NCBI GenBank assembly: GCA_963822145.1
Contig: CAWGGG010000004.1
Span: 1,252,972-1,316,971 of the forward strand
Direction of reading: 5' to 3'
Length of the DNA stretch: 64,000 nt
DNA from: an uncultured Bacteroidales bacterium
GTDB taxonomy: Bacteria; Bacteroidota; Bacteroidia; Bacteroidales; UBA10428
Shown here piece after piece: positions 14,706-52,993 of the stretch (the stretch's first letter is position 1; each line of letters opens with the position of its first letter). The notes under the pieces are model-generated. The model did not search any database, was not told the origin of the DNA, and saw nothing but the letters and a program-made list of their open reading frames with translations. A program made the translations under genes and the position numbers.

Positions 14706-16118
14706 ATGCTTTCGCAATTTCTCCGCCAGCTCATACAACAATACCTGGGTCATGATCCCACACCCGGACAGGTTGATCTGATGCATAAACTGGCCGCATA
14801 CATACTCAATCCTGAAAGCAGCAAAGCATTTATAGTAAAAGGGTATGCCGGTACCGGCAAAACCTCGTTGATCAGCGCACTGGTGAAAGCACTTGAAGAA
14901 ATGAAAGTGAAAACCCTTTTACTTGCACCTACCGGAAGGGCTGCCAAGGTTTTTTCGTCTTATGCGGGAAAGGGAGCCTATACCATTCACAGGAAGATAT
15001 ACCGGCAGAAGTCGTCCAACGACGGCTTCGGAGAGTTTGAACTGAACAGGAACCTTTCCAATGATCTTATTATCCTGGTGGATGAGGCTTCTATGATTTC
15101 AGACACCGTTGCAGAAGATAAGATTTTCGGCTCTGGCCGTTTACTGGCCGACCTGATCAGTTTTGTTAATGATGGTAGGAATTGCAGGCTGGTACTGATT
15201 GGAGATACCGCTCAGCTGCCGCCTGTTGGCATTGCTTTGAGTCCCGCACTCGATAAAAATGAGCTTTCCCTTTATATGCCCGTTGCAGGCGAAGCCATGC
15301 TTACTGATATTGTACGCCAGAACCAGGAATCCGGAATCCTGGTAAATGCAACCGTGGTCAGAAATCTAATTGCAGCAGATAATTTATCCTTGCCGCGGTT
15401 GAAAAACCTGAACCATACCGATATCCGCTTTATCTCGGGGCAAGAATTGACGGAATGTCTCGAAAAGGCTTATGACAAATACGGTCATGAAGAAGTAATG
15501 GTCCTTTGCAGGTCGAACAAAAAGGCAAACCAGTATAACCAAGGCATCAGAAAGCAGGTGCTGTTCAGGGAGGAAGAAATTGTCAGTGGCGATTTACTGA
15601 TGGTGGTAAAAAACAACTATTTCTGGGTTACCGGCAAGCCCGACCTGGATTTTATTGCCAATGGTGATATGGTAAAAGTACTGAAAATCAAAAAATATAT
15701 TGAAAGATACGACTTCCGGTATGCTCTTGTTCAACTGCACCTGGTGGATTATGGCATTGATTTCGAAGGCTGGATAATGCTGGATACACTAACCGTAGAA
15801 TCAGCTGCATTGAGTCGCGAAGACAGTTACAGGCTCTACCAGTGCGTTCTTGAGGATTACAATCATCTCGACACGAGGAAGAAACAATACAAAGCTGTAA
15901 AGGAAGATCCCTTTTTCAATGCCCTCCAGGTAAAATTCGCCTATGCCGTTACCTGTCACAAGGCCCAGGGCGGACAATGGAAATCCGTGTTCATCGACCA
16001 GGGCTATGTAACCGCTGAGAGAATTGATTTAGAATACCTGAGATGGTTGTACACGGCTATCACAAGGGCGACCGAGGAGCTTTACTTTGTGAATTTCCCT
16101 AATGAGAGTTTGGAATAA
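14706..16118 (+). CDS. RecD/PIF1-like ATP-dependent DNA helicase (AAA_30 / UvrD_C_2 type)
   Basis: 470-aa ORF. Motifs: Walker A GYAGTGKTSLISAL, Walker B ILVDEASMI, GDTAQLPPV and a C-terminal YAVTCHKAQGGQW. Confidence 0.8.
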   Translation: MLSQFLRQLIQQYLGHDPTPGQVDLMHKLAAYILNPESSKAFIVKGYAGTGKTSLISALVKALEEMKVKTLLLAPTGRAAKVFSSYAGKGAYTIHRKIYRQKSSNDGFGEFELNRNLSNDLIILVDEASMISDTVAEDKIFGSGRLLADLISFVNDGRNCRLVLIGDTAQLPPVGIALSPALDKNELSLYMPVAGEAMLTDIVRQNQESGILVNATVVRNLIAADNLSLPRLKNLNHTDIRFISGQELTECLEKAYDKYGHEEVMVLCRSNKKANQYNQGIRKQVLFREEEIVSGDLLMVVKNNYFWVTGKPDLDFIANGDMVKVLKIKKYIERYDFRYALVQLHLVDYGIDFEGWIMLDTLTVESAALSREDSYRLYQCVLEDYNHLDTRKKQYKAVKEDPFFNALQVKFAYAVTCHKAQGGQWKSVFIDQGYVTAERIDLEYLRWLYTAITRATEELYFVNFPNESLE

Positions 16119-16206
16119 TGTGCTAATGTGCAAATGTGCTAATGTGCAAATGTGCTAATGTGCAAATGTGCAAATGTGCAAATGGGCTGATGTGCAAATG
16201 GGCAAA
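16119..16206 (+). repeat. Tandem octamer array (TGTGCWAA) x11 starting directly after the helicase stop codon
   Basis: Units read at 16119, 16127, ... 16199: tgtgctaa/tgtgcaaa alternating, then tgggctga, tgtgcaaa, tgggcaaa. Confidence 0.95.
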
Positions 16207-16229
16207 TGTTCCGGTCACCGTTGGACTAC

Positions 16230-16259
16230 AGCCTTTTAGCCTTTAGCCTAAAAGCCTTT
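16230..16259 (+). repeat. Short tandem array AGCCTTT(T)/AGCCTAAA x4, 9 nt from the stop of the minus-strand receptor gene
   Basis: agcctttt agccttt agcctaaa agccttt, read at 16230-16259. Confidence 0.8.
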
Positions 16260-16268
16260 GTCATGTTA

Positions 16269-18653: not shown

Positions 18654-18714
18654 ATTTTTGAACAAAGTAACTTTCAGGGAGTGAAATTTGAAATCCTGAT
18701 AAATCAGTATATTT

Positions 18715-19494: not shown

Positions 19495-19497
19495 TAA

Positions 19498-19521
19498 TGT
19501 GCAAATGTGTAAATGTGCAAA
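19498..19521 (+). repeat. Tandem octamer array (TGTGYAAA) x3 just after the LuxR stop codon
   Basis: tgtgcaaa tgtgtaaa tgtgcaaa, the same unit and orientation as the array at 16119-16206. Confidence 0.9.
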
Positions 19522-19572
19522 TTTTAAAAAGGTGGGTGGTTTATTATTAAATAGTTTATTATTATAGGTTTT

Positions 19573-19965: not shown

Positions 19966-19975
19966 AATTACAAGA

Positions 19976-21802: not shown

Positions 21803-24800
21803 TTATCGGATTATAGTGATAGTACCCGCAACTGGCTCGACACCGTCAATTTTAAGATCAATAATATAATAGTAGGTATCCATAGGCAAATCTTTGCCAT
21901 TCGTTCCGGTGCCATTCCAGTTATTGCGGTAGCCGCCATCAGATCTGAAAACCAATCTTCCCCAACGATCAAATACTTGAATATCAGCATCAGGGAAAAG
22001 ATGTATATTGTTGATTTCCCAGTAGTCATGAACATTGTCTTCATTGGGTGTGAAAGCATTGGTAATAATGCCCAGCAACGTTTCCGGTGTACATTCCCCG
22101 ATCAAAATCTCATCGTAAGCCTGGCAGCCATTTTCATCCGTAACAGTAACACTAACCAGGCCAGCTCCTTCATGCACTGTAATGGGATTGATGATTTCAT
22201 TGGTCGACCAATCATAAACTGCAAAATCACCTGCATCGAGTATCAAAGCATTATCACCGCAAAGAATTGTATCATTGCCCAGGTTCACGACAGGATTGCT
22301 ATACTGGGATACCATCACCGTGTCAGTTCCTGAACAGGAATATGCATCCCAAACCTTCACGGAAACCTCTCCGGCAGTTGTTGCTGTATAAATAGGCCCT
22401 TCGGAATTATCTTGCCATAGATAATTTGTGAATTGATCCGTCAAATCGAATGTATAACTATCATTCCCGCAAAGAGCAACCTCACCACCCAGATCAGGAT
22501 CCGGCTGAGATATCATGACCAGCGTATCGCGAATGGCACTGACACAGCCGTCTGCACTTGTTTTCTCCAGTTGAAGTGTATAATCGCCCGCCGGAAAATC
22601 CCAGTCGATTTCGAAATTCACTGTATCCAGTATCATGGAATCCAGCTCCGGTATCCTCCAGTTATAGGAAGACAAATGATCAGGATTCCTGACATAATAA
22701 TAGGCATTGGATTGTCCGTAGCATTCAACATCCACATATCCCTCCGGGAATGAACCCGTATGGGCTGAAGCAATCATCTCAGCCACAGGGATTTCAAAAG
22801 CATGCGAATGGGCACTGCTATCCCAGGTTCCAACACATCCGGAAAGGGTATTCATAGCCCTGGCCCAAACCTGTAATGAGGAACCTTCTGCAATGCTGGC
22901 CTCGTATTCGAAAGGCGGTGAGCTTACAGTTTCAATCACAGTAATACCTCCATCCAGTGAAAACTCAACCTGATCGCCATGGGTGACCATTGCGGAGAAA
23001 ACAACATCACCTGCACCACAACGGTCGGCACTTTCAACAGAAACCGTCGGAATTGAATTAACGGTGATATAATCCACCTTGAGCAGGGTATCACTGATAC
23101 CGTTCTCAACAATGAGTTGTACCGATTTCGATCCTGCAGTCAGGTATTGCACTGTATGAGGTCCCATTCCGGTTGCTGAGGCTGGAACGGCATCTGCGCC
23201 AAAACTCCATTGGTAGGTTCCTGTTGCCATTCCTTGAGACGCATCAGTGAAAAGAACAGATTCTCCGAGACAAATCACGGTGTCGTTGGCAATGAAACCA
23301 GCTGATATATTGCAGCCCAGTATGGTGATTGCCAGAGAAACAGGATCGCCCTGACAACCAGAGGCATCTGTTTCGATAACAGTAACATTACCACTCTGCA
23401 TTCCGAAATCAATCAGGATCTGATTATTCCCAGGACCGGTCTCCCCCGAAGCAATAGTAGCATCCGTAGGTACGCTCCAACTATAGCTTGATCCAGCGGT
23501 AACTGCAACGCTATAGGCAACACCAGTGGCCATACAGCTTGGTGCCACCGCTCCAGTAATGGAGGAGGTTAGCGGGAAGGAGGTTACTGAAGTATGAGTA
23601 GCAGCAACGGGACCATTACAGCCGAATGCAGTTGCGGTGATGGTAGATGTTCCGTACCAGTCTGCATCATAAGTGACCTCTCCTGAGGCTGAATTAATGG
23701 TATTGCCTGCTGCTGTTGAACCTGCATCCAATGTATAGGTTATACCTGTACTGTTGCTTGCCGTAGCAGTATAAACCACGGTTCCAGCGGAATGGCATCG
23801 TGTTGATGTAATTCCCGCATCAAATACAGGCACGCCAACCGATTGAATAACTGTTATCGGATAGCTGGCACTTACTGTGCCGTTGCCACAGGCATTCACT
23901 CCCTGTACCGTGAGCGTGCCCGAGGTCGCGTTCGCTGCAAAGCTGATCGTTACCGCATTCGTCGTGCCGCCCGTGATCGTGGCCCCTGTGCCGCTGTAAC
24001 TCCATGTATAGGATGTGGCATTCGTTATCGCCCCCACACTGTATGATACGTTATTCTGTCCCTGGCATACGGGTGATGTTCCCGTGATCGCCCCGGCTGC
24101 TGCCGGCAACGGGTTCACCGTTATCGCGTATCCTGCACTTACCGTTCCGTTGCCACAGGCATTCACTCCCTGTACCGTGAGCGTGCCCGAGGTCGCGTTC
24201 GCTGCAAAGCTGATCGTTACCGCATTCGTCGTGCCGCCCGTGATCGTGGCCCCTGTGCCGCTGTAACTCCATGTATAGGATGTGGCATTCGTTATCGCCC
24301 CCACACTGTATGATACGTTATTCTGTCCCTGGCATACGGGTGATGTCCCCGTGATCGCCCCGGCTGCGCCCGGTAACGGGTTAACTGTTATGGGATATCC
24401 TGTGCTTACCGTTCCGCTGCCGCAGGCATTCACTCCCTGTACCGTGAGCGTGCCCGAGGTCGCGTTCGCTGCAAAGCTGATCGTTACCGCATTCGTCGTG
24501 CCGCCCGTGATCGTGGCCCCTGTGCCGCTGTAACTCCATGTATAGGATGTGGCATTCGTTATCGCCCCCACACTGTATGATACGTTATTCTGTCCCTGGC
24601 ATACGGGTGATGTCCCCGTGATCGCCCCGGCTGCGCCCGGTAACGGGTTAACTGTTATGGGATATCCTGTGCTTACCGTTCCGCTGCCACAGGCATTCAC
24701 TCCCTGTACCGTGAGCGTACCCGAGGTCGCGTTCGCTGCAAAGCTGATCGTTACCGCATTCGTCGTGCCGCCCGTGATCGTGGCCCCTGTGCCGCTGTAA

Positions 24801-27800
24801 CTCCATGTATAGGATGTGGCATTCGTTATCGCCCCCACACTGTATGATACGTTATTCTGTCCCTGGCATACGGGTGATGTCCCCGTGATCGCCCCGGCTG
24901 CGCCCGGTAACGGGTTAACTGTTATGGGATATCCTGTGCTTACCGTTCCGCTGCCGCAGGCATTCACTCCCTGTACCGTGAGCGTGCCCGAGGTCGCGTT
25001 CGCTGCAAAGCTGATCGTTACCGCATTCGTCGTGCCGCCCGTGATCGTGGCCCCTGTGCCGCTGTAACTCCATGTATAGGATGTGGCATTCGTTATCGCC
25101 CCCACACTGTATGATACGTTATTCTGTCCCTGGCATACGGGTGATGTTCCCGTGATCGCCCCGGCTGCGCCCGGTAACGGGTTAACTGTTATGGGATATC
25201 CTGTGCTTACCGTTCCGCTGCCGCAGGCATTCACTCCCTGTACCGTGAGCGTGCCCGAGGTCGCGTTCGCTGCAAAGCTGATCGTTACCGCATTCGTCGT
25301 GCCGCCCGTGATCGTGGCCCCTGTGCCGCTGTAACTCCATGTATAGGATGTGGCATTCGTTATCGCCCCCACACTGTATGATACGTTATTCTGTCCCTGG
25401 CATACGGGTGATGTCCCCGTGATCGCCCCGGCTGCTGCCGGCAACGGGTTAACTGTTATGGGATATCCTGTGCTCACCGTTCCGCTACCGCAGGCATTCA
25501 CTCCCTGTACCGTGAGCGTGCCCGAGGTCGCGTTCGCTGCAAAGCTGATCGTTACCGCATTCGTCGTGCCGCCCGTGATCGTGGCCCCTGTGCCGCTGTA
25601 ACTCCATGTATAGGATGTGGCATTCGTTATCGCCCCCACACTGTATGATACGTTATTCTGTCCCTGGCATACGGGTGATGTCCCCGTGATCGCCCCGGCT
25701 GCGCCCGGTAACGGGTTCACCGTTATCGCGTATCCTGCACTTACCGTTCCGTTGCCACAGGCATTCACTCCCTGTACCGTGAGCGTGCCCGAGGTCGCGT
25801 TCGCTGCAAAGCTGATCGTTACCGCATTCGTCGTGCCGCCCGTGATCGTGGCCCCTGTGCCGCTGTAACTCCATGTATAGGATGTGGCATTCGTTATCGC
25901 CCCCACACTGTATGATACGTTATTCTGTCCCTGGCATACGGGTGATGTTCCCGTGATCGCCCCGGCTGCGCCCGGTAACGGGTTAACTGTTATGGGATAT
26001 CCTGTGCTTACCGTTCCGCTGCCACAGGCATTCACTCCCTGTACCGTGAGCGTACCCGAGGTCGCGTTCGCTGCAAAGCTGATCGTTACCGCATTCGTCG
26101 TGCCGCCCGTGATCGTGGCCCCTGTGCCGCTGTAACTCCATGTATAGGATGTGGCATTCGTTATCGCCCCCACACTGTATGATACGTTATTCTGTCCCTG
26201 GCATACGGGTGATGTCCCCGTGATCGCCCCGGCTGCGCCCGGTAACGGGTTAACTGTTATGGGATATCCTGTGCTTACCGTTCCGCTGCCGCAGGCATTC
26301 ACTCCCTGTACCGTGAGCGTGCCCGAGGTCGCGTTCGCTGCAAAGCTGATCGTTACCGCATTCGTCGTGCCGCCCGTGATCGTGGCCCCTGTGCCGCTGT
26401 AACTCCATGTATAGGATGTGGCATTCGTTATCGCCCCCACACTGTATGATACGTTATTCTGTCCCTGGCATACGGGTGATGTTCCCGTGATCGCCCCGGC
26501 TGCGCCCGGTAACGGGTTAACTGTTATGGGATATCCTGTGCTTACCGTTCCGCTGCCGCAGGCATTCACTCCCTGTACCGTGAGCGTGCCCGAGGTCGCG
26601 TTCGCTGCAAAGCTGATCGTTACCGCATTCGTCGTGCCGCCCGTGATCGTGGCTCCTGTGCCGCTGTAACTCCATGTATAGGATGTGGCATTCGTTATCG
26701 CCCCCACACTGTATGATACGTTATTCTGTCCCTGGCATACGGGTGATGTCCCCGTGATCGCCCCGGCTGCTGCCGGCAACGGGTTAACTGTTATGGGATA
26801 TCCTGTGCTCACCGTTCCGCCACCGCAGGCATTCACTCCCTGTACCGTGAGCGTGCCCGAGGTCGCGTTCGCTGCAAAGCTGATCGTTACCGCATTCGTC
26901 GTGCCGCCCGTGATCGTGGCCCCTGTGCCGCTGTAACTCCATGTATAGGATGTGGCATTCGTTATCGCCCCCACACTGTATGATACGTTATTCTGTCCCT
27001 GGCATACGGGTGATGTCCCCGTGATCGCCCCGGCTGCGCCCGGTAACGGGTTAATAGCAACAGTCGGGGTAGTGGTTAATTGTTCACTGCATCCATTATT
27101 GTAAGACAAAACGTTAAATGTTGTATTGCCAGTCAAAACACCGGATGGAAGATTTATGCCGCCTCCTGTTCCGGCAACGGAGGATCCTATGTTTATGACT
27201 CCCTCACGTAACTGGTAACTGAATCCGGATTGTGAGCCGGCAACATTGATTATGGCAATACTGCCATCACATACTGATGCGGGAGCGGTAACTATAAGGC
27301 TGGTTAATGGTTGCGGGTCTACTACCACATTAACAGTATTTGTGGCAAAAGTACCAGGTGAACCACTTCCCACAACATGTTCATCAACCATTACCGATCC
27401 TGCACCTGCAGAATTCCAGGTTACTGAAATTGAATTCTGAGTTGTAGAATAGGTAGCGCTGCATCCGGTACAATTACCGTTTGTAACTGTCCACCTGTAT
27501 TCATGGTTTGCCACCAGTGTGGTTGAATATCCCAAGGTGGTGCCAATACAAATATTGGAATTGGTAGGTGTAATGGAGGGCGCCGGGGTGTTTACCACTG
27601 TAATTGCCTGTATATCTGAGGATGAACAACCAGCGTTGGTTTCAATTACCTGCAGTTGGTAAACGCCAGGCGTACCTGTTATTGCAATTGTTTTAGATTC
27701 CGAACTTCCTCCGGGAATAGATCCGCCGCTTGCACCCACCCATTGCCATACATAAGTGCTTCCGCCGTGCAAAGCAGTTGAAAAAGCACGCGATTCGTTC

Positions 27801-30800
27801 ACTCCGACTGTAAAGGTTGCACCGGTGATGTCGGGTATGTATGAATTAAGAATTGTGACCGGGAATGTTGTTCCATCAACTATTCCGGAGGATGACGCAT
27901 CGGAAACCGCTGTCAGCTGAACATTGTAAGTTCCAGGTCCTCCAAAATCAGCACCTGTTAGCTGAATATTATAAGTGCCCGAACTGATCCCGGATTGAAC
28001 AAAACTGTTCGGACCAGCATTATAGGAGAGGGTCCAGTTCGGAGAACCGGTCAATACAACGGTTACTGTTATAACATCCCCATTGTTGCAGACGGATGCC
28101 GGATTTACATTTGTTATTCTTGCGGTAACACCGGTGACACCCAAGGTAAAAATGTAATTATCAGTAGCAACGGGTACACTGGTGGCAACAGTTCCGGAAG
28201 AAAGGGTACCGGCTGCCACATTACCCTTTTCTTCCCATCTGTTTGAAGGAGTAACCCATTCAGCTACCCGGGTAGAATTAACAGCGCCTATATTGCTGAA
28301 GTTATCCCAACGAAGGCGCACATTTGCAGTGTTCGCACCTGGACGCGTAACGATCCAGTATTCATTGTTGCTTACCCATGTAAGAGGGGATAATAGATTC
28401 GATCTGCTATAACTTCCATTGGGGTCATTGTTTATATATTGTACCCGCCAATCATTAGTAGCACTAACTTCTGATATTAAAACATTCCCGTAACGTGTCG
28501 GTTTACCGGCAGAAGCATTAAAATTACCCACCGGGAAATTAAAGGACTGACCCAGGAGTATTCTCTTGTTTAAAGGCCCATCAACAAATGAAGCGTCACT
28601 TCCACCTATCACTGCAAAGGGTGAGGTATTGGTAATGGTCAGCAGATTGGTACTGGTAGTATTTATTCTTCCGTTGGTGAGGTAAAGCCGGTTGGATATT
28701 TCAGCAGTGCCGGACAATGCTACTCCGGAAGGATTATTAATCCTGAAATTATAAAAATGTTCAGGATTTGGTGTCGTAATTGTCTGTAATGCCGATCCCT
28801 CAAAGGATACAACTCCCTTACCCGGTAAAAATCCGTTAGCATAACTATCTGTCCAGTTACCCCAGATGATAATATCCTTATTATAAAGCGTATTGTTCAC
28901 CTGGCTTCCGGTTATCAATAGATTACCCTTTATCAGAAGATTAACGCAGGATAAACTTTTGGCTATTGATCCCGTGAATTCAAGATTCTGGTATGTTTTA
29001 AAGGTTGGTGACACGCTGCTTGACAACATTGGGCCATTCGATCCATTGTATTCTACAGTACTTCCTGTGGTGTTCAAAAAACCGGTATAGTCACCACCGG
29101 GAAATACAAACTGGCTTGACAGGGTGTTAACGATAATAAAACGACCGTTACCGCTGACATGGCCAAAGTTATGACCAATTGTACTGTTAATATTTAAGAT
29201 GCCATTATCCAGTATTGAATAGGCAGATCTGTCATCATTGGTAATATTGATTTTGTGTCCGGCCTTAATAATGATCGGGTTACCATCGGGAGGTGATGTT
29301 GACACTGTTCCATTGTGTCCGCCAGTGGCCCAACTGGTTGCCATATTCCAATCAGCACCTGTTGTTGTGATGTTCAATGCATTGTCATAGCTATAATAAA
29401 CAGGTTTGGATGCAAAATTTATTGCTTCACCGCATGTGTATTCACCATCAATATAGGCTGTTCCGGTAAGATCAATGCTGTGATTCCCGATGTTGATAAC
29501 CCCGTGACCGAGGTTTGTCCATACATTTGAATAGTATCTTGCACCGACAAATGTGGCATTTGTTTCAAGGGTCCCCTGTATATCACCGGACAGGTATTTA
29601 TAGGAATGGGATACGGATGTGAGGCCACCGAAATCAGTGTTTGTAACATTCCAGTAATACTGCAGTTCATTGAGCGGGGCATCGGTCAAGGACGGAATTC
29701 TATTGTTAATCGGTTTAATGGTAATGGAACCGGGTGCTCCGGTATAGCTTAACGTATAGGTCGCCGGGGTATATTTGTTTGCTACACCAATTGGGAAGGT
29801 AAATGTTGCAGGTGATGAAGGAGGAAATACTTTAGTAACACCTTTGTCACTCAGCACACCGTTGGTAATAATCCAGTTATTATTCGCGGGGTTACCAGGT
29901 ACAGGGGCGGCACTGATTGAAGAAGCTGCACTTAAGGTTATTCGGTATTCATCAGCATACAGGTAACCGGAAGTTAGGGTTATTACTCCATTCAATGTGA
30001 TATCATTGGCAAGCGTCACGCCATTGGCAGCCCCATTGCTGAAATTAACATTACCAAACTGACCATTGCCATTACCCGAAATGATCTGATTTTTTGTTCC
30101 CTGTATAACCAGACTGCCTAAACCTGTGGCCGAGGCGTGAATTCCACTGTTAATGATATTGCCCTGAGCGATAATATTAAAATTATTGGCATTAATCAAT
30201 GATCCGCCGTTAATGGTAAGGGAATCGCTAATAACAGGATTCACAGCTCCTGAAAATGTAATTCCGGTTCCGGTAGTCTTGTTAATCAATAGTTTGTTGA
30301 AAGTGGTGGCAACACCAAACGTTGCACTCTGCGTGTTGCTGCCGTTAAAAATGGTGGTATTGGTTCCGGCGGTATATGTTCCGTTGTTGGTGTAATTTCC
30401 TTCAACACTAACATTTCTGTTGTTGCAATTGAGAACACTATTTGTGGCGATATTCAGATTTCCGGAAAGCACCAGCGCATTTACCATAATTCTGGCTGTA
30501 GCAACATTGGTGGCATTTCCGGTAACGGATAAGTTATGCAAATTACAGGAGGCATCAATATTGTAGGTTTGATTGCTGGTCAGTGTACCTTGCGACAGGT
30601 TCATGGTTCCTCCTGTAACATTGCTGATTTCAGGCCTGATGTAAACATCGCCGAAATCGACGCCCCCTCCCCGGATAATGTTAAGATTGCCTCCGCTGAA
30701 AGCAAAAGAGCTGCTGTTGTTGCAGATTTCAAATTTTGCACGGGTATTATCATAATTCTTACCGTAAATAGTGACGGTTCCGTTTGACTGGGTATACTGC

Positions 30801-33800
30801 AACGCTCCCTGTGTAATTAATGAATTGCGTTTTATCTGACCATTGACATTCAGATTACCACCGCTCACCATAATTGTAGGATTTCCTTCCGAGGAATACT
30901 CAATACAATTTCTACGGTTGTTAACCATGTTCCCGACATTTAAGGTACCCGACAAAACCTCAAGTTTCCCGATCAGGAAAAGAGAACTGTCATTGACATT
31001 GTTGTCCACCACGGTTATATTGGCCAGACTGTCCACACTCAGGCATCCGGTTTCAGGAATTGTAAAACTTCGAGTGGCTGAAAGGCTCAAGGTTCCTTGT
31101 TTGATACGTATGGTTCCGTTCCTTAAGGTTAGTGCCGGATCAAAGGCGGCTGAAGTAGATATTGCAGCCCTGACATTCAGAACAGGTGTTTGCGAGGTGC
31201 CCTTATTGACTTCCAGTGAATAAAATGATTTTGCGGCACCCCGTATACTTGCATCTGTAATACCCTTAAAATAGCTGAATATCCTTCCTGGTGCGTTATT
31301 CAGGTTGAATGTTCCTGAACCGGTAAGGCTGCCGTATAATTCTAACACATGGTTAACGGCCGTGCCGAGGTTGTATACTCTGAAAGTACCGTTAACATTA
31401 AGATCTCTATAGACTTTTATAGTTTGTGCATTGTTGTTCCGTACTTCGAAAATCCCCGATGTAACTATCAGATCATGATTTACTGTGATGGTATGAACTG
31501 CCAGGGTATTGGTATTCACCTGGCCCGTTCCTGTGCCGATTATGTTCAGATCATTATAGATATTCAGGTTGCTGTTGGGCAATGTCACTATTGCTGTGTT
31601 CTGGGGACTGATTGTAAGGTTAAAGTAATGATCCAGTGTTAACCCGGTTATATCAGAAACAGTGGGAATTAAAATACTACCTGCACCAATGGTATAGTAA
31701 TCAACAGTACCACCGGTTTCGCCAATAAAATCACCAAAATCTCCCCGAGGGAAATAATTATTTGCCGCTATCCGTAACGTTCCGCTTCCTGATACGCCTT
31801 TGTCCGGCAAAGCTTCAAAATTATGCCCTATGGTAGCCTGAAGGTCGAGCACAGAACCAGAGTAGATGGTTAGACTTCCGGCATTTTTGCCATTCTGGTT
31901 GATAGTTACAGTATGACTATGCGTCGCATCACCAATTATTACCAGGGTGTTGCCATCCGGTACACTGGCGCCGCCCGGTCCTCCAACAGCCGTTGATGAC
32001 CAGGTAGCCGTATTGTTCCAATCACCATTTAGACCCGTACTGTAGCGAACCTGAACAGGTCCGAATGCTGCCGGTTCTCCGGCCGTATATTCTCCCTCAG
32101 CTGTATATGCAGTATCATAGGTCACAACATTGTTACCGTCATTTACCAATACCACATTATTTATTGATATCCAGTTACCTGCCCCATTATTTCTGTAGGC
32201 TGCCGGAATATAATTGCTCTCCGTTCCACTGACGAAGAAGTTGGACAATGCTCCATCATAGGTATAATTGTGTATCACTGAATTTGCCGGTACGCCTGAA
32301 AACCCTGATTCCGAAGTTTTCCAGTAGCAGGCAAGTGAATTGGCAGACTGTGAAAGAGGATGTCTTGTATTCACTGGTCGTGTGGTTACCGTACCATATG
32401 CAGATGGAGCTGCAGCATATCGAACCGATGCAGGCATATAGTAATAAGTAGAATTGCCCGAATTATAAAATCCGAAGGGAAACAAAAAAGCATTCGTATT
32501 GGTGTAGGTCTTGCTCAATCCGCCGTCAGACAATAAACCACTGGTCTGAATCATGCGGGTATTGTTGAAATTCTTCGATGTTCCGGTTAAATTATCAAAT
32601 ATATCGCCGGTAGCGGTGAGGATCAGGTTGTTTGATCCAATATTCAATATGGCTGCGGTGTTGGCCAAGCGTAAATCACCTGTTATTATCGTATTTGCCT
32701 GCAGGTTAACAGAACCAGATGTCTTATTAAGTGTCAGGTTGTTGAACATACCTGATCCGTCACCGGTGATTACTTGCACTGCTGCTCCCGTAAGCTGAAT
32801 GCTTCCTGCGCCGCTCACCGGTTTAAAGTGCGTGCCTGAGTTTGAAATATTTCCCTGCACCTGAAGAATGCGGCCATTATCATTTAAAGTACATCCGTCA
32901 TCAATCTGAAGATTTGCTTTAACAATAACCGGAACAGCAGGAGTGGTATTATTTAGGGTCAGGTCCGATGCATTAGAAAGCGTAAGGTTATTGAGATTTC
33001 CACTGATTGTTCCCAGTATATCAAATGTCTGAGGCCCACTTCCATTGAAGATTGTAGTATTCGTGCCAGGTGTATAGGTTGTTCCTGAAGGAATGTAAAA
33101 ATCTCCCCCAATAAGTAAATCGACATTTTGTGTATTATTGAATACTGCTGAATTTTCCAAGGATAAATCATGAAGAATGATCAGCGGGAGAGCAACAGTA
33201 AGTCCGGTAAATCCAGCAATCGGCCGTACCTGGAAAGTGTTTGCAGTTCCGTATATCTGAAGATTCGGCAGGGGAACTCTTGAATTGAAATAAGCATTGC
33301 GAGGTGTTGAATTGATCCGAATGGTACCTCCTGTGACATTAATATTACGGGGAAGACTGCCAAGTACCATGCTGAAATTCTGGGCTATACCTCCGGCATT
33401 GTTTGGTTGCTTAATATCGATGATACCTCCTGACATAACAAAAACATTTTCAGGAAAAGGGATTGAGAAGGAAGCATGATTATCAGCAGCTCCAGTATCA
33501 TCATATCCCGTAAGCGTGAGGCTGCCGCCATACATTTTAAATGATCCCCTGTGGGTTGCCCCACCCAGAACAGAAGTTCTTAATGATTGTGTGGTAATGG
33601 TTCCGCTTTCGATCTCATAGTTTCCTGATTCCCTGAGGATCATACCGATCTGGCCTGCAAAACTTGCCAGGCAGTCTGACGAAAACCTGATTTTGCCATA
33701 AGCATAAATACCACTGAACTGGGCTACAGAATTAAAGGAAACCGTACAGCCATCAAACCAGATCCCGGCATCTTCATCAACAACGTAGCAATTAGTTGTT

Positions 33801-37995: not shown

Positions 37996-38997
37996 ATGAA
38001 AACAACAGCAATTACTGTATTCCTTGTATTGGCCATCATCCTGACAGGCTGTGTTCAGAACCAAAAAATGATCATGACTGTGACAGGACCCGTTGATGTT
38101 AATCTGATCGGAATCACACTGGCACACGAACATATCCTGGTGGATTTTATTGGGGCGGACAGCTCCGGTTATCACCGTTGGAACAAGGATACCGTAATTG
38201 CTAAAGTGCTTCCGTATTTGCTGGAAGCAAAGGCAGCGGGAGTATCCACCCTGGTGGAATGCACACCAGCCTACCTCGGGAGAGATCCTGTTTTGTTGAA
38301 ACGACTTTCGTTACTCAGCGGTTTGAATATCATCACCAATACAGGTTATTATGGCGCCATTGAAAACAAGGCCATACCGGATCACGCGTATGAAGAAACC
38401 GCTGATCAGCTTGCAGCAAGATGGATTGCTGAATGGGAGAATGGTATAGAAGACACAGGTATCAAACCGGGCTTTATTAAAATTGCCATACCTGAAGATT
38501 CAATGCTGTCCGCTATACATGAGAAGATCGTGCGGGCAGCAGCAAGGACACACCTGAAAACAGGTTTAGTCATCAATGTGCATATAGGCCCATCAGCGGC
38601 AGCGGAAGCGGTATTAAGGTTACTGAAAGAAGAAGGAGTGCACCCTTCGGCATTCATATGGACACATGCACAGGCAGGGAGCCAGGACTCGCATGTCAGG
38701 CTGGCTGAAACCGGCACCTGGATCTCCCTTGACAATGTCATGCCGGATAATATTGCCCAATATGTATCTGCGCTGATCCATTTAAAAAACAACCATTTGC
38801 TTCAAAACGTGCTGATATCCCATGATGCTGGCTGGTATGATGTAATAAATCCCGGAAGCGTGAAATACCGGGGATATACTACTGTCTTTGAACAACTTAA
38901 ACCAGCTCTAATTAACGCAGGGTTCTCCGATAAAGAGTTTAACAGGCTCCTGATCGACAATCCTGCCAGGGCGTATGCGATTGGAAGGAAGATCTAA
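37996..38997 (+). CDS. Phosphotriesterase-family (PTE/PHP-like) metal hydrolase, lipoprotein
   Basis: Start at MKTTAITVFLVLAIILTGC (ATG at 37996). Hallmark motif GITLAHEHILVDF. The track start at 37879 overlaps the previous gene. Confidence 0.8.
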   Translation: MKTTAITVFLVLAIILTGCVQNQKMIMTVTGPVDVNLIGITLAHEHILVDFIGADSSGYHRWNKDTVIAKVLPYLLEAKAAGVSTLVECTPAYLGRDPVLLKRLSLLSGLNIITNTGYYGAIENKAIPDHAYEETADQLAARWIAEWENGIEDTGIKPGFIKIAIPEDSMLSAIHEKIVRAAARTHLKTGLVINVHIGPSAAAEAVLRLLKEEGVHPSAFIWTHAQAGSQDSHVRLAETGTWISLDNVMPDNIAQYVSALIHLKNNHLLQNVLISHDAGWYDVINPGSVKYRGYTTVFEQLKPALINAGFSDKEFNRLLIDNPARAYAIGRKI

Positions 38998-39037
38998 GAT
39001 TTAAGATTCAAGATCCAAGATTTAAGATTCAAGAAAT
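38989..39037 (+). repeat. Tandem heptamer array (AAGATYY) x7 overlapping the PTE stop codon
   Basis: aagatct aagattt aagattc aagatcc aagattt aagattc aagaaat. The TAA stop (38995-38997) spans the junction of units 1 and 2. Confidence 0.95.
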
Positions 39038-41645: not shown

Positions 41646-41663
41646 CAACAGTTCGTTCATGAT

Positions 41664-41888
41664 TCAGTAGGCCGCATTCTCCTTAGCCGGATTCTTCATT
41701 ACGTAATCTCTCGAGAAATCTACTATCCTTCTCACTACACGATCATCCACATCACTCTCGAGGCATTTTAAGTAATATCCCACCGCTTCAAGTTCATCAC
41801 TTTCTAAAAATCCTGCAAGCTTAATAAATTCATTTTCATTATTATCGGAGAATTTGGTTGAACCAAAAAGAGTAGAGGTTCTGTTCAT
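41664..41888 (-). CDS. Small acidic hypothetical protein
   Basis: 74-aa ORF with an ATG start. I recognise no motif, so coding status is uncertain. Confidence 0.4.
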   Translation of the reverse strand: MNRTSTLFGSTKFSDNNENEFIKLAGFLESDELEAVGYYLKCLESDVDDRVVRRIVDFSRDYVMKNPAKENAAY

Positions 41889-41996
41889 AGATTAATTATT
41901 AAATTAATAATATTACTACATGTTAGAACGCACCAAATTATTCAGAAATTGTGATAAAGGTAATAATTTTTAATTACCGTGCAATAGTTAAGGGAA

Positions 41997-42132
41997 GGGA
42001 CCAGGGACGAGGGACGAGGGACAAGTAGCATCTGGAAGTGCTGTAATGATGGGGAAAATTCAATTACTGTTATTTCCCAACTGTATTACAATTCCTCAAA
42101 CACCTTGTCCCTTGTCCCTTGTCCCTCGTCCC
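41997..42132. repeat. Inverted pair of heptamer arrays (GGGACNA x4 / TYGTCCC x4) separated by 80 bp
   Basis: Left arm 41997-42024: gggacca gggacga gggacga gggacaa. Right arm 42105-42132: ttgtccc ttgtccc ttgtccc tcgtccc. The right arm ends 2 nt from the stop codon of the ECF sigma gene. Confidence 0.9.
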
Positions 42133-42134
42133 TT

Positions 42135-42725: not shown

Positions 42726-42888
42726 AACTACCTCCTTTTTGAGTTAAAAGTAAAGTAGAATTGTAGCGATAGGCAGTCCTCCTGTTGTTGGTTTAATTTG
42801 CAAAGTAAACCGCTTTATAAAAATAAAGCAATAATTTTGTCGAAAGTATACTATTTTTTTTTCAAAAGCAACTTTTTTATTTTTCCAC

Positions 42889-45711
42889 ATGTCGGGTAAC
42901 AACTCTTTATACGAAAAAAATGTCATTTCGGTTTCAGGAGCAAGGGTGCATAATCTCAAAAACATCAGCCTTTCCATTCCGCGTGATAAATTAATTGTTG
43001 TTACTGGCCTTTCCGGTTCCGGTAAATCATCCCTGGCTTTTGATACGATTTATGCTGAAGGACAGCGCCGATATGTTGAGAGCTTATCATCCTATGCCCG
43101 GCAGTTCTTAGGCAGGATGAACAAACCTGAAGTAGACTTCATCAAAGGTTTGCCACCTGCCATTGCAATTGAACAAAAGGTGAATACCCGAAATCCCAGA
43201 TCCACGGTTGGTACATCAACTGAGATATACGATTACCTGAAACTGCTATTTGCCCGTATAGGCAAAACCTTTTCCCCTGTATCCGGGATAATGGTTAAGA
43301 AAGAAACCGCTACAGATGTGGCAGATTACATTACCTCCTTTCCGGAAGGAAGCCGGCTTCTGTTACTTTGTCCATTGAAGGGCAACGGGAATATAAGCTT
43401 TGCCCAAAAGCTGGAAGACCTCAAGCAACAGGGAATCACACGGCTTGAAATCAACGAAATGATTCTTAAACTCGAAGAGGCAATTGTGCAGTATAATCCC
43501 GAAGATGCCGGTGAGGTCAATATCGTGATTGACAGGATTGTGGTAGCTTATGACGAAGATTCCAGGAGTCGTTATGCCGACTCTGCCCAGATGGCTTTCC
43601 GGTCAGGAGAAGGAAAATGCATGGTTAAACCAGTCGATGGTGGGCCTGGGATGCGTTATTTCAGTGACACCTTTGAGGCTGATGGATTGCGGTTTGAAGA
43701 GCCTTCGGTACATATGTTCAGCTTCAATAATCCCATCGGGGCCTGTCCTCACTGTGAAGGATACGGGAAGGTCATCGGCATCGACGAAGACCTTGTCATT
43801 CCCAACAAGAATCTTTCAATATTTGAAGATGCAGTGGTGTGCTGGAAAGGGGAAAAGATGAACAAGTGGAAAGAAAAACTTATATACAGTGCTGATAAAT
43901 TTGGGTTCCCCATACACCGGCCCTATTTCGACCTGACAGAGGAGCAGCAACTGGCCCTTTGGAACGGAAATCGGTATTTTAAAGGTATTTATGCCTTTTT
44001 TAACTATCTTGAATCGAAGAAATATAAGATTCAGTACAGGGTTATGCTGGCACGCTACAGGGGCAAGACTGTCTGTCCGACCTGCCGGGGTACCCGACTG
44101 AAAAAAGAGGCCTCCTATGTTAAAATACAGGGAATCAGCATGCAGGATCTTGTTATTATGCCTGTTTCATTACTACGCAACTTCTTTCATGACATCAGGC
44201 TTAATCCGCATGATATGAAAATTGCCGGCAGAATTCTTACAGAAATACAAACCCGGTTACAGTATCTGACCGATGTCGGTCTTGGCTACCTCACCCTGAA
44301 CCGCCTCTCCTCTACCCTTTCGGGCGGAGAATCTCAGCGGATAAACCTGGCCACAACCCTGGGCAGCAGTCTGGTCGGTTCGCTTTATATCCTGGATGAG
44401 CCCAGTATTGGTTTGCACCCTCGTGACACCGGCCTGCTGGTAAAAGTATTGAAGAATCTTAAGAATATTGGCAATACTGTGCTGGTGGTAGAGCATGAGG
44501 AGGAAATCATACGAGCGGCAGATGAAATCATTGATATCGGACCACTGGCTGGTCGGATGGGTGGCGAGATTCTTTTTCACGGCTCCTTCCGCGAACTTAT
44601 TCAAAAACATGATGGTCTGACTGCCCAATACCTGCGTGGAGAGATGAAGATCGATGTGCCACCGGTGCGGAGAAAATGGAGCAATTATATTGAAATTTCA
44701 GGTGCCAGGGAAAACAATCTGAAGAACATCAATGTCAGAATCCCGCTGAATACCATGACGGTTATTACAGGGGTAAGCGGCTCGGGAAAATCATCGTTGG
44801 TTAAAGGAATTATTTATCCTGCTCTGAATAAACTCATCCAGGGTGCCGGAGATAAAGGTGGAAAATTCCAGGACCTATCAGGGGACCTGCATCTTCTTCA
44901 GGGCGTTGAATTTGTTGATCAGAACCCTATTGGCAAATCAACCCGGTCGAATCCGGTCACCTATATCAAAGCCTTTGATGAAATCAGAAAACTCTTTGCC
45001 GGTCAGACCCTTTCAAAGTATAACGGATTTACACCTTCTCATTTTTCTTTTAATATCGATGGTGGCAGATGTGAGGAGTGCCAGGGAGAGGGAGAGATCA
45101 AAGTGGAAATGCAGTTTATGGCGGATGTTCATCTGATTTGTGACAGTTGTCACGGACGCCGGTTCAAGGACGAGGTACTTGAGGTACATTACGAAGGTAA
45201 AAACATACATGATATTCTTGAACTCACCATTGAGGAAGCCATAAGCTTTTTCGGCTCTCAAAGAGGTTCCACGGAGAAAGTCATTGCCCGCAAGCTGACA
45301 CCCCTGGCTGATGTTGGGCTTGGATATGTAAAACTGGGTCAAGCCTCAAGCACCCTGAGTGGTGGTGAAAGTCAGCGCGTTAAGCTGGCCTCCTTCCTGG
45401 GCACAGAAAAAGAAGAGAAATCTGTACTTTTTATCTTCGATGAACCCACCACCGGTTTGCATTTTCATGACATCAGGAGACTTCTGGATGCCTTCAATGC
45501 ACTCATTACTAAGGGACATTCCGTTTTAATTGTGGAACACAATCCTGATGTAATAAAAACTGCTGATTGGGTAATTGACCTTGGACCTACTGGAGGTGAT
45601 GCGGGTGGTTACCTGGTTTGTGAGGGAACTCCTGAACAACTGGTGCAATGTGAAAATTCTTTTACCGGAAAGTTCCTTGCAGGAAAACTAAAAGTGAAAA
45701 GTGAAAAATGA
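42889..45711 (+). CDS. uvrA: Excinuclease ABC subunit A
   Basis: 940-aa ORF. It has two ABC ATPase modules ([25 protein letters not shown]; LSGGESQR twice) and zinc-finger cysteines. Confidence 0.95.
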
Positions 45712-45771
45712 AAAGTGGAAGAAAACAGACTCTGCGTTTTTCACTTTTCATTTTTCACTTTTCATTATTCA
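45691..45771. repeat. Inverted pair of heptamer arrays (AAAGTGA-type) forming a 23-bp perfect hairpin between convergent genes; likely a bidirectional terminator
   Basis: Left units span 45691-45725 and overlap the last uvrA codons and its stop. Right units span 45737-45771. The perfect complementary arms are TGAAAAGTGAAAAATGAAAAGTG (45695-45717) and CACTTTTCATTTTTCACTTTTCA (45742-45764). Confidence 0.9.
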
Positions 45772-45777
45772 TTGATA

Positions 45778-46218: not shown

Positions 46219-46230
46219 ACGTATAGAATT

Positions 46231-48146: not shown

Positions 48147-48164
48147 CATCATTATAATTTATAC

Positions 48165-48242
48165 ATGAATATAGTATCAAACATAGCCGCTTTCTTTTAC
48201 TTTTATTTTTGGGTAAAACCTGAAGGGGCTTTGTTTGTATAA
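48165..48242 (+). promoter_or_regulatory. Candidate attenuation leader peptide ORF MNIVSNIAAFFYFYFWVKPEGALFV*
   Basis: Hand translation gives 25 codons. Seven consecutive aromatic codons (F F Y F Y F W) occupy 48192-48212. The ORF lies between the promoter motif and a terminator, directly upstream of pheA. Confidence 0.6.
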
Positions 48243-48265
48243 CATTTAGATATAAAAGCAAAGAG

Positions 48266-48292
48266 GTCCCGCAAGAACGGGACTTTTTTTTT
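48266..48292 (+). terminator. Intrinsic terminator (attenuator) 25 nt upstream of pheA
   Basis: GTCCCG (48266-48271), loop CAAGAA, CGGGAC (48278-48283), then 9 T (48284-48292). Confidence 0.7.
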
Positions 48293-48316
48293 ATTTAAAC
48301 TGAAAAGTTAACAAGC

Positions 48317-49177: not shown

Positions 49178-49178
49178 A

Positions 49179-50264: not shown

Positions 50265-51293
50265 ATGAAAACCATAGAGATTAACACTGATGCAAAAGTT
50301 TCCAGAATCATTATCGGTGAAAGTCTAAAAAACCTTTCCGCTTATGTCCCGTCCGGTAAGGCAATCATTATTACTGATGTAACCTTACACAGGATATACG
50401 GGAAAGACTTTCCGCCCTTTCCGGTAATTGCCATGGGTTTGGGCGAGTCCCATAAAACCCTTGAAACACTTGCATACATTTTTGAAAGGCTCATTGAATA
50501 TGAGACTGACCGGTCGACCTTTATTATAGCCATTGGTGGCGGGATTGTATGCGATGTGGCTGGTTTTGCGGCCTCAGTTTATATGCGCGGCCTGCACTTT
50601 GGCTTTGTTTCCACCACCCTGCTTTCACAGGTTGATGCCAGTGTGGGCGGAAAAAATGGTGTTAATTTTCTGGGTTATAAAAACATGCTGGGTGTTTTTA
50701 ACCAGCCTGATTTTGTGCTTGTTGACACCGGTATGCTTCAGACCCTTGATCAAAGGGAATTTCGCTCAGGCTTTGCTGAAATAGTAAAGGCCGCTGCCAT
50801 TAAGGATGCTTCCCTTTTCAGCTACCTGGAGAATCATCACCAGGATGCCCTTGTGAATAATACTGACGTTCTGGAAAAACTCATCTATGAGGCCGTTCTA
50901 ATCAAGTCGCAGGTGGTACAGCAAGACGAAAAGGAAAAAGGGGAAAGGAAAAAGCTCAATTTCGGACATACCTTTGCCCACGCCATTGAAAGGAAAACAG
51001 GGATGTTGCATGGTGAAGCTGTTAGTATTGGAATGGCCCTTGCAGCAGCATTTTCAGTAAAACTGGGCTTCTTGCAGCAATCGGAATCCGACCGTATCTC
51101 TCAGATCCTCAATAGCCTGAAACTGCCTACAAAATGGGAAAAAAACTGTTCGGATCTGGTTTCCGACATGAAAAAAGATAAAAAACGTGAGGGCGACTAT
51201 TTGCATATGGTTTTTTTAAGTCATATCGGCAATGCCCTAATTGAAAAGATCTCATTTAATCATTTGGAAAAACTTAGTCATGATTTGTGCTAG
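50265..51293 (+). CDS. aroB: 3-dehydroquinate synthase
   Basis: 342-aa ORF. Motifs IAIGGGIVCDVAGFAAS, VDASVGGKNGVN and NFGHTFAHAIE. Confidence 0.9.
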   Translation: MKTIEINTDAKVSRIIIGESLKNLSAYVPSGKAIIITDVTLHRIYGKDFPPFPVIAMGLGESHKTLETLAYIFERLIEYETDRSTFIIAIGGGIVCDVAGFAASVYMRGLHFGFVSTTLLSQVDASVGGKNGVNFLGYKNMLGVFNQPDFVLVDTGMLQTLDQREFRSGFAEIVKAAAIKDASLFSYLENHHQDALVNNTDVLEKLIYEAVLIKSQVVQQDEKEKGERKKLNFGHTFAHAIERKTGMLHGEAVSIGMALAAAFSVKLGFLQQSESDRISQILNSLKLPTKWEKNCSDLVSDMKKDKKREGDYLHMVFLSHIGNALIEKISFNHLEKLSHDLC

Positions 51294-51918: not shown

Positions 51919-51924
51919 CCCTGT

Positions 51925-52932
51925 ATGAATAGTTTTGGAAAAATATTCAGGATCAGCATTTTCGGGGAATCCCATGGCACACATGTCGGGATTACCCTGG
52001 ATAATTGTCCTGCCGGATTGCCGCTCAAAACAGAAGACTTTCTGACAGAACTTGCACGCCGCCGCAGCGGAGCAAAAGGTACTACGCCCCGTAAGGAGGC
52101 TGATCTGCCACACATTATCAGCGGTGTGTTCAATGAACATACCACGGGTGCTCCCATAACCATCATATTTGAAAATACAAATACAAGATCGCGTGATTAT
52201 ACTGCGCTTCGGGACACACCACGACCGGGCCATGCCGATTTCGTGGCACTGAAAAAGTATGGGGGGTTTGAGGATTATCGGGGTGGCGGACATTTTTCAG
52301 GACGTCTCACCCTGGGATTGGTTGCTGCAGGAGTTATCGCCCGAAAGTTATTATTGCCAGCGACCATTCATGCCCATATACTGGAAGTGGGTGGTAGTGT
52401 AAACATCGATGAAGCTATTGAACGGGCTGAGGAAAAGCAGGATTCCATAGGTGGAATCATCGAATGTTCAGCTAAGAATATGCCTGTTGGTATGGGTGAA
52501 CCATTTTTTGATTCCATGGAATCGGTGCTCAGTCACATGATGTTTTCAATACCCGCAATTAAAGGAATTGAATTCGGTTCAGGTTTCGCAGCGGCAAAAA
52601 TGTGGGGCAGCGATCATAATGATAAAATCATATCACCGGATGGCCTTACCGCAACCAATCATTCCGGGGGTATCAATGGCGGAATCAGTAATGGCAATGA
52701 TCTGGTATTCAGGGTTGTGGTCAAGCCTACTTCCAGCACTCACCAGAAACAGACTACCATCAACCTCCGGAGCGGAACCATGGTGGACCTTGAAATTGAG
52801 GGCCGTCACGACACCTGTATCGCCCTCAGGGTACCCGTTGTAGTGGAGGCTGCCACAGCCATTGTACTGGTAGATCTGATGATGCAGTCGCAGTTGATTC
52901 CGAGAATAGCAGTCAAGGCTGCAGACTATTAA
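51925..52932 (+). CDS. aroC: Chorismate synthase
   Basis: 335-aa ORF. Motifs FGESHG, GRHDTC and the N-terminus MNSFGKIFRISIFGESHG. Confidence 0.9.
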   Translation: MNSFGKIFRISIFGESHGTHVGITLDNCPAGLPLKTEDFLTELARRRSGAKGTTPRKEADLPHIISGVFNEHTTGAPITIIFENTNTRSRDYTALRDTPRPGHADFVALKKYGGFEDYRGGGHFSGRLTLGLVAAGVIARKLLLPATIHAHILEVGGSVNIDEAIERAEEKQDSIGGIIECSAKNMPVGMGEPFFDSMESVLSHMMFSIPAIKGIEFGSGFAAAKMWGSDHNDKIISPDGLTATNHSGGINGGISNGNDLVFRVVVKPTSSTHQKQTTINLRSGTMVDLEIEGRHDTCIALRVPVVVEAATAIVLVDLMMQSQLIPRIAVKAADY

Positions 52933-52940
52933 CTGAATTT

Positions 52941-52988
52941 AACAACAACAACCAACAACCAACAACTAACAACTTACAACTATTAACT
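52941..52988 (+). repeat. Tandem heptamer array (AACAACY-type, about 7 units) between aroC and tyrA, flanked by a 14-bp direct repeat
   Basis: aacaac aacaacc aacaacc aacaact aacaact tacaact attaact. The direct repeat ACTATTAACTGAAT lies at 52925-52938 and 52979-52992. Confidence 0.95.
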
Positions 52989-52993
52989 GAATA

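Follow-up and report, generated by a model that had tools for sequence, protein, structure and literature searches.

The window analysed here, 64,000 nucleotides from an uncultured Bacteroidales bacterium (contig CAWGGG010000004.1), carries short tandem arrays of 7- and 8-nt units that concentrate at the 3' ends of genes. We found that these arrays are heptamer and octamer long simple-sequence repeats (LSSRs), a kind of repeat that has already been described and of which they form a new member, in uncultured Bacteroidales and their phages. The original prediction had found no described class to match them; such a class exists, since heptamer repeats at stop codons are documented by Rehm et al. 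(2015; PMC4692102) and related arrays by MacGregor (2015; PMC4679880). The arrays consist of tandem units within the 5-11-nt range in excess of chance, are non-coding, concentrate at stop codons, have their G-rich strand on the coding strand, change copy number by whole units and use units that are dispersed. We assign them to the class because every defining feature that was tested is present; G-quadruplex potential, which is not, is a trait of a subclass only. As for their origin and role, on balance we lean towards hypermutable slippage arrays that selection confines to the strip behind the stop codon, with complementary pairs acting as terminator or processing hairpins.

Arrays were located with Tandem Repeats Finder (TRF) over the whole window, and each was then read directly. 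With a period of 6-9 nt and at least three copies, nine arrays were recovered, all of period 7 or 8 and with 3.4-11.6 copies, against a mean of about 0.4 (range 0-2) in 30 Markov shuffles. Seven of the nine lie within 15 nt of a stop codon, where random non-coding placement would put 2.1 (P~0.001). A UvrA search yielded 80 loci, all except L016 labelled Bacteroidota, the best match (84% identical) coming from a metagenome-assembled genome (MAG) of an uncultured 'Bacteroidales bacterium'. The six usable nearest loci (UvrA 77-84% identical; L004 was excluded as too short) form our set of close relatives, and gene order is retained across them. Five of the six are array-rich and L005 carries a single array; overall, they hold 22 arrays per 100 kb, compared with 3.1 per 100 kb in more distant Bacteroidales. 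Stop-abutting arrays number 18 of 29 in these relatives, with 4.9 expected and none of 1000 random placements as high, and start-abutting arrays are depleted (1 vs 4.8 expected). The period spectrum in the clade peaks at 7 (23 arrays) and 8 (12 arrays), with almost no other value; L001 favours period 8, and L002, L003 and L007 favour period 7. Expressed per kb, clade arrays reach 2.77 in convergent, 0.64 in co-directional and 0.79 in divergent spacers, and 0.026 in genes. Convergent spacers were denser than divergent ones in all three sequence sets, with genes near zero; divergent spacers were the least dense intergenic class in two of the three sets, and co-directional spacers were the densest class in the metagenome set.

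These data bear out the original proposal of a common process at gene 3' ends: placement relative to genes is non-random in the window and in the six relatives, the stop association extends to metagenome contigs, density falls from convergent to divergent spacers, and the arrays have a polarity, described below. The wording that they always abut stop codons was too strong. It fits the seven of nine arrays in the window and weakens outside it, where about 60% of the arrays of close relatives and 30-40% of those sampled from metagenomes abut a stop. The further claim that none lies at a 5' end or inside a gene was mistaken, as the array behind aroC ends only 5 nt before the next start codon, hence at a 5' end too, and a weak array, AAAAGGA x3.7 at 50929-50954, is intragenic.

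Slippage, one of the mechanisms suggested at the outset, gains support from strains. In a comparison of the arrays across five contigs that share 94.6-99.98% identity with the window, copy number was found to differ by one unit: one arm of the uvrA hairpin is a single 7-nt unit shorter in L081. In L082 the loop between the two arms is inverted, and in L083 and L084 the arms have diverged and the UvrA tail is different. The array behind the LuxR-type gene is identical in an independent assembly (L085), and the aroC array in L086 has equal length with 3 substitutions. The arrays do recur in independent assemblies, as JGI, ENA and Logan contigs encoding identical neighbour proteins have them at the same places. 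The UvrA, helicase and GFO oxidoreductase sequences had no exact-protein match, so that the 11-copy and PTE arrays stand outside the strain comparison.

Between species, the position of an array persists while its unit, and even its period, changes, as seen at the ends of uvrA, the sigma-factor gene and aroC. The unit at the uvrA stop is AAAGTGA in the window, TTAGGTGT in L001, GTGACTG in L002, ACAGGCT in L006 and GGGACAA in L007. At the aroC stop, the AACAACY of the window corresponds to GGTGATTA and GGTATTC at the orthologous stops in L001 and L002. The sigma-factor stop retains AAGGGAC in the window as well as in L002 and L007, whose UvrA is ~79% identical to that of the window. At the uvrA site of L005 the genes overlap, leaving neither spacer nor array, and L003 has there a single-copy hairpin, ACAGGCT...AGCCT. 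Arrays are therefore dispensable at this site. The unit of the L003 hairpin is amplified in both arms in L006, so that at least one inverted pair looks like an amplified small hairpin, judging from the sequences. Two further repeats were also observed behind uvrA. In L002 (12830-13240) a unit of ~28 nt (CCCGAAACCCTTCAAGCGGTCGCAGACC), a longer and different repeat type, recurs many times in the 3' spacer after a short heptamer array, and a more distant Bacteroidales MAG (L069, 2893-3121) has TTAGACT x32.7 some 50 nt past the uvrA stop, the longest array among the genome loci.

Conserved sequence bounds the variable zone. UvrA is conserved through ...TGKFLxGKL; what follows is array-encoded and different in every genome, giving tails such as KVKSEK*, GV*, QATGYRLQ* and, in L007, whose unit lacks a stop in the sense frames, a tail of ~25 residues. 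On the other side, downstream of the ECF sigma-factor gene, a ~76-aa open reading frame (ORF; 41660-41890, - strand; MNRTSTLFGSTKFSDNNENE...) and its promoter-like region are conserved in 7/7 close genomes, and the array zone between the sigma-factor stop and that promoter is hypervariable. The constrained end of UvrA and the conserved promoter together indicate that arrays fill the exact stretch from the last constrained codon to the next functional signal.

The coordinates of the features are collected in the table. Arrays were found by TRF and by direct reading at all seven loci of the original prediction, the AGCCTTT locus being weak; units mostly differ between loci as had been stated, with the exception of two that share AATGTGCA.

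Table. Array features of the window, with strand and setting, and array pairs of phage contigs.
Feature	Position	Strand	Setting or support
Direct array (AATGTGCW) x11.6	16117-16209	+	TRF and direct reading
Weak AGCCTTT-like array (AAAGGCT-like on the receptor sense strand)	16230-16259	-	TRF, x2.6 with indels
Direct array (AATGTGYA) x3.4	19496-19522	+	Immediately 3' of the LuxR-type gene TAA; 50 nt 5' of the hisI start
Direct array (AAGATYY) x7	38989-39037	+	Includes the PTE stop TAA; next start 30 nt beyond the array end
Long hairpin with GGGACNA arms	41996-42134	-	Directly 3' of the ECF sigma-factor stop
Hairpin with arms (AAAGTGA) x4 / (TCACTTT) x5	45690-45720 / 45737-45773	.	Between convergent uvrA and 146-aa gene
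Direct array (AACAACY) x6-7	52940-52988	+	Fills the 61-nt aroC/prephenate-dehydrogenase spacer; 8 nt 3' of the aroC stop
Phage array pairs (L208-L235, IMG/VR)	e.g. L234 2121-2232, 5619-5758, 7589-7769, 9360-9582		

The identities of the flanking genes were confirmed by Pfam, and the neighbours of the arrays include the housekeeping genes uvrA, aroC and hisI. The helicase stop TAA (16116-16118) is the first TAA of the AATGTGCW array, whose 3' units are degenerate. Nearby, the weak array consists of four AGCC at 7-8-nt spacing, 9 nt from the receptor stop. GGTCACC ... GCCTTTGT is similar to loop ends elsewhere, the likeness to GGTCGCCTTTGT junctions having been judged by eye only. This array and its neighbour at 16117-16209 may belong to one composite element, of which the weak array would be the inner part, amplified. 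AGGCT-type units like those of the weak array are found again in L003, L006 and L007. The AAGATYY array shows a higher-order period of 21 nt. In the sigma-factor hairpin, a 5' arm, (AAGGGAC) x4.6 at 42103-42134, terminates at the sigma-factor stop and is followed by an 80-nt inner stem-loop and by a 3' arm, (GTCCCTN) x3.9 at 41996-42024. The uvrA hairpin has a loop of 18-23 nt, spans the uvrA TGA and ends 4-6 nt from the stop of the convergent gene, and its left arm encodes the final residues of UvrA (KVKSEK) plus the TGA. On either side of the aroC array lies a copy of a 13-nt direct duplication, (A)CTATTAACTGAAT (52927-52940 and 52980-52993), which includes the aroC stop and contains TAACTGA, the heptamer studied in Beggiatoaceae, with TAACTGAAT on both flanks. 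Two side observations were made. The sequence TGTGCAAAT (16125-16180, 19496-19519) fits the relaxed DnaA-box consensus TGTGNAWAA at 8/9 positions, which the other units do not, probably a coincidence. In addition, a 22-nt unit x2.3 (42835-42885; TTTTTTCAAAAGCATACTATTT) lies where the sigma-factor gene and uvrA diverge, in their promoter region; no other repeat is at a 5' end, and this one is outside the 7-8-nt class.

Folding separated the inverted pairs from the direct arrays. The uvrA pair folds at -43 kcal/mol (z -6.7) and the sigma-factor pair at -79 kcal/mol (z -8.45), whereas the 11-copy direct array has no significant RNA fold (z -1.0 sense, -0.1 antisense); stable hairpins were obtained for the two inverted pairs and for none of the direct arrays. 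A terminator role, suggested at the outset for all arrays, is thus plausible for the inverted pairs and not for a solitary direct array. At the uvrA hairpin a U-tract (UUUUAGUUUU) is present in one direction only, toward the convergent gene. Ordinary terminator hairpins occur elsewhere in the genome, and a simple terminator scan listed neither array hairpin. Across inverted pairs, the two arms co-evolve: an arm fits its own partner more closely than a shuffled one (0.75 vs 1.73 mismatches per unit; 0/1000 shuffles as low). Selection for a fold of the sense mRNA was considered and is unsupported, as the antisense strand is the more stable in 43/55 co-directional pairs and the sense strand in 11, many of these being homologous, non-independent phage spacers.

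The comparisons show that the arrays gain and lose whole units, and that the unit turns over between species while the array stays at the gene end. Changes of 7-8 nt would be tolerated only in the untranslated strip from the stop to the next promoter or start, and because tolerance would be confined to this strip, arrays would accumulate there and reach back to the last constrained codon. On occasion they may take the place of the native stop codon and give the protein a variable C-terminal tail. Solitary direct arrays would be unstructured and are probably mostly filler. Facing complementary arrays, with the G-rich arm first, would form a long hairpin that most likely serves to terminate transcription in both directions, to protect the mRNA 3' end or to direct processing between cistrons. 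The match between arms could be kept by selection for pairing, or by arm-to-arm templating and recombination.

Several observations speak against this account, the first of which concerns polarity. On the sense strand, stop-adjacent arrays have G>C in a ratio of 25:7 among the genome loci, 32:6 in the metagenome set for other units and 62:0 in phage contigs, and the G-rich arm is the 5' arm in 119/126 inverted pairs; a pure tolerance filter predicts neither the sense-strand excess of G nor the order of the arms. Array-free 3' flanks show G and C at ~50:50 on the sense strand. The reuse of units is equally awkward. Pairs of arrays at separate loci of one genome agree with at most one mismatch in 12/61 cases among the locus stretches, as opposed to 1.5% by chance, and in-place slippage cannot account for one unit at separate loci of a genome. 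A JGI metagenome scan for (AATGTGCW)3 returned at least 120 stretches; among the matches listed, arrays of this octamer span contigs of 33-54% GC, and they extend to temperate phages. Where such an array overlaps a stop codon, the TAA of the gene is the first TAA of the array in ~14/19 cases by our own tally, compared with about one third for a random junction frame. In HK97-like phages, an inverted pair of octamer or heptamer arrays occupies nearly every late-operon spacer (73 arrays per 100 kb), a pattern that is hard to call junk. The polarity, together with the recurrence of particular units, shows that slippage and tolerance do not explain everything; the strict period of 7 or 8, the precedence of the G-rich arm and the shared library of units go beyond what the reading explains.

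Further observations define the polarity. Among the matches listed, the 5' edge of metagenome AATGTGCW arrays abuts a sense stop in 28/95 cases and the 3' edge abuts a convergent stop in 4/96. A stronger sense-strand G bias in operon-internal spacers, which avoidance of Rho would predict, was rejected, given that solitary co-directional arrays gave 15:15 and 38:31. There is no sense-strand bias across co-directional spacers overall, and the bias goes with arrays close to a stop and with the 5' arm, whereas spacer type is not what sets it. This distribution amounts to a rule by which a G-rich array lies beside the stop and a C-rich array beside the following start, in agreement with the description that Rehm et al. 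give for Xanthomonas and Nostoc. We also discarded the idea, argued from in-register stops, that spacers consist of decayed units: the phase is in register only where overlap forces it.

The AATGTGCW octamer occurs in 29 IMG/VR stretches, most of which are HK97-like temperate phages with genes for terminase, portal, protease, capsid, tail, amidase and integrase. Their array pairs extend from a few nt past one stop to a few nt before the next called start, and homologous spacers differ in array copy number. A conserved loop of ~42 nt (GGTCGCCTTTGTACGCTGAGTA...) separates the AATGTGCR arms in the phage family and in some gut contigs; it recurs in many spacers and in both orientations, and a second recurring phage loop, GAGTGGCGCAGCC, is likewise found in both orientations.

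The points against slippage and tolerance raise the question of whether the arrays are due to a dedicated mechanism linked to transcription or to a binding factor, which we regard as a minority possibility. In one form of this idea, which we hold only tentatively, the arrays are the product of a transcription-polar, sequence-selective system common to environmental and gut Bacteroidales and to temperate phages. The G-rich-arm-first array hairpins and their half-forms could then be a class of their own that punctuates gene ends and the gaps between cistrons, assembled from a small set of units such as AATGTGCW, TTAGGKN, GTTGACAA and AAGGGAC, and their maker or maintainer could be an RNA- or DNA-binding protein, R-loop-dependent expansion or an unrecognised mobilising activity. 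If this were true, termination might be coupled to re-initiation by bringing a stop and the next start together at the foot of a single stem. In another form, units such as AAUGUGCW, UUAGGKN and AAGGGAC would be bound, as RNA or DNA, by a host factor after the translation stop, a factor acting for instance in termination, decay, re-initiation or insulation, and arrays such as (AAUGUGCA)n and (AATGTGCA)n would be selected multimers of its site. The recurrence of units within genomes, across very different GC and in phages fits such a platform, as do the strict polarity relative to the neighbouring gene, the AAGGGAC conserved at the sigma-factor stop in three genomes and the arrays between nearly all late genes of one phage family. 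It is difficult to reconcile with at least five unrelated units in 37 kb of one genome, with the free replacement of the unit at a given gene end between relatives, with the lack of arrays at orthologous sites in L005 and L003, or with single AATGTGCW copies, which outside arrays are not enriched (3 seen vs 6.5 expected for the whole window), and no candidate factor was identified; we consider it possible but rather unlikely.

Mobility would offer another route to dispersed units. Non-autonomous mobile or REP/MITE-like palindromes with tandem-repeat arms might have inserted beside stops and later been amplified by slippage, and the conserved phage loop in both orientations, the dispersal of units within genomes and the 13-nt duplication flanking the aroC array would suit this origin; Liang, Rudd and Deutscher are reported to have found in 2015 that REP elements sit close behind stop codons. 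Yet the conserved loop junction is common to only ~20% of the metagenome AATGTGCW arrays (among the matches listed), the window has just one copy of the sequence inside the sigma-factor hairpin, neither a regular target-site duplication nor a terminal inverted repeat was seen beyond the arrays, no transposase lies nearby, and the phase of an array relative to the stop is random once a gap exists. We therefore doubt a mobile origin. G-quadruplex elements, an explanation put forward for GGGAATC in Xanthomonas and for GGGGAYT in Nostoc, are a very improbable general explanation. The sense strand of the sigma-factor AAGGGAC x4 arm does have four GGG tracts, spaced by 4-nt loops, and beside stops it is the coding strand that is G-rich (as in PMC4692102), but 6/7 loci (AATGTGCW, AAGATYY, AAAGTGA, AACAACY, AAAGGCT) have no G3 tracts and AACAACY is C-rich, not G-rich, on the sense strand. 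Least credible of all is a translational fail-safe, in which a stop-bearing unit with a period that is not a multiple of three offers stops in three frames to read-through or frameshifted ribosomes. Many units do hold the stop of the gene in register, e.g. TAATGTGC, TAAGATT, TGACTGG and TAGGGGC, and the three-frame property has been noted for TAACTGA repeats too (PMC4679880). Once ORF overlap was removed, however, three-frame stops were equal on the sense and antisense strands (11 vs 10), on which ground we reject the backstop as a general explanation; several arrays (GGGACAA, CAACAAC, GATTTAC) have no stop in any sense frame, the L007 UvrA ORF reads ~25 codons through its array, and three copies would suffice where arrays reach 11-30. 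Phase-variable contingency loci were rejected too: the arrays are at 3' ends, only C-terminal tails vary and the neighbours are housekeeping genes.

Among known systems, the closest are the repeats analysed by Rehm et al. (2015; PMC4692102), GGGAATC in Xanthomonas and GGGGAYT in Nostoc PCC 7120, which are head-to-tail 7-nt units in 2-26 copies and strongly intergenic. Few of them occur between divergent ORFs, and they are strongly biased to positions right next to stop codons or overlap them; their G-rich strand is the coding strand downstream of genes, and pairs on opposite strands can form stem-loops. Their length and sequence vary among close relatives at the same intergenic site, and they have no established function (PMC4692102). 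The window arrays share with them stop proximity, scarcity in divergent spacers, inverted pairs, the G-rich coding strand and length variation. They differ in that the Rehm repeats use one dominant unit with a G3 or G4 tract per genome, prefer four units and are read as G-quadruplexes, whereas the Bacteroidales arrays use several unrelated units, mostly incapable of a G-quadruplex, include octamers besides heptamers, belong to a different phylum and are present in phage operons.

MacGregor (2015; PMC4679880) described arrays of the TAACTGA heptamer, mostly intergenic, in Beggiatoaceae, Cyanobacteria and five Bacteroidetes. In the forward orientation this unit provides stops in three frames, so that ORFs end in the repeats, and long arrays are mixed with other heptamer repeats in Gramella, Aequorivita and Elizabethkingia. 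In the Beggiatoa genome the repeats are found a short way upstream of start codons, they were proposed to act in translation initiation, and a single unit was studied (PMC4679880). Both sets are thus intergenic heptamer arrays, with the difference that those of Beggiatoa are start-proximal and that one unit was followed. The LSSR survey of Mrazek et al. (2007), as summarised in the same paper, found heptamers to be the most abundant class and proposed polymerase slippage; a slippage rationale for 7-nt units is also quoted there (PMC4679880). Short tandemly repeated repetitive sequences (STRR) and LSSRs resemble the window arrays in being heptamer families at many intergenic loci with lineage-specific abundance, and differ in their units and in descriptions that are not known to include a stop-anchoring rule. 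The cyanobacterial STRR, said to have been reported by Mazel et al. in 1990, are reputedly the oldest example.

The REP and BIME elements of enterobacteria are likewise extragenic, lie behind stops in convergent and co-directional spacers instead of promoter regions, form hairpins and occur in clusters of alternating orientation. They affect mRNA stability, termination and, within ~15 nt of a stop, translation. A REP unit is an imperfect palindrome of 20-40 nt, whereas the window unit is a non-palindromic tandem repeat of 7-8 nt; window units are not self-complementary, and the direct array lacks a significant fold, contrary to the definition of a REP unit. REPs are mobilised by RAYT (IS200-like) transposases, none of which was seen among the ORFs examined in the 64-kb window. 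Copies of the sigma-factor hairpin core that would make it a MITE (miniature inverted-repeat transposable element) were also sought in the window, and none was found. The inverted pairs further resemble intrinsic terminators and the RNase III hairpins of T7-type phages in their long stable stems right after stops, the phage hairpins separating cistrons of one operon; stems of 25-70 bp and loops of 18-85 nt are far outside the usual geometry of terminators. Nor are the arrays CRISPRs, since their 7-8-nt units are contiguous, unlike 23-47-nt repeats with unique spacers. No Rfam family matches anywhere in the window at the gathering score, and searching the literature for the unit strings as such turned up no paper.

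Knowledge of bacterial heptamer arrays goes back to 1990, and that of their attraction to stop codons to 2015. This lineage offers many units in one genome, a sharp period of 7 or 8, a near-absolute rule of arm order and strain-level polymorphism in the form of unit steps and loop flips, and temperate phages, with such hairpins punctuating their late operons, make a compact experimental system. Array hairpins may also mark transcript ends that consensus terminator scans miss. In practical terms, arrays shift predicted stops and C-terminal tails and break short-read assemblies, and are hence probably under-counted in MAGs. Short-read contigs often start or stop inside arrays, as L081 does at its 3' end and L087, L115, L116, L162, L166 and L167 at contig ends.

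Repeats of other kinds were observed within long reading frames of the window. A 4364-aa ORF (21803-34897, - strand) contains, at 23848-27054, 12 tandem copies of a 267-bp (89-aa) unit with 97% identity, and a 285-bp unit is present twice, with 90% identity, at 61324-61887 within the ORF at 60403-62169.

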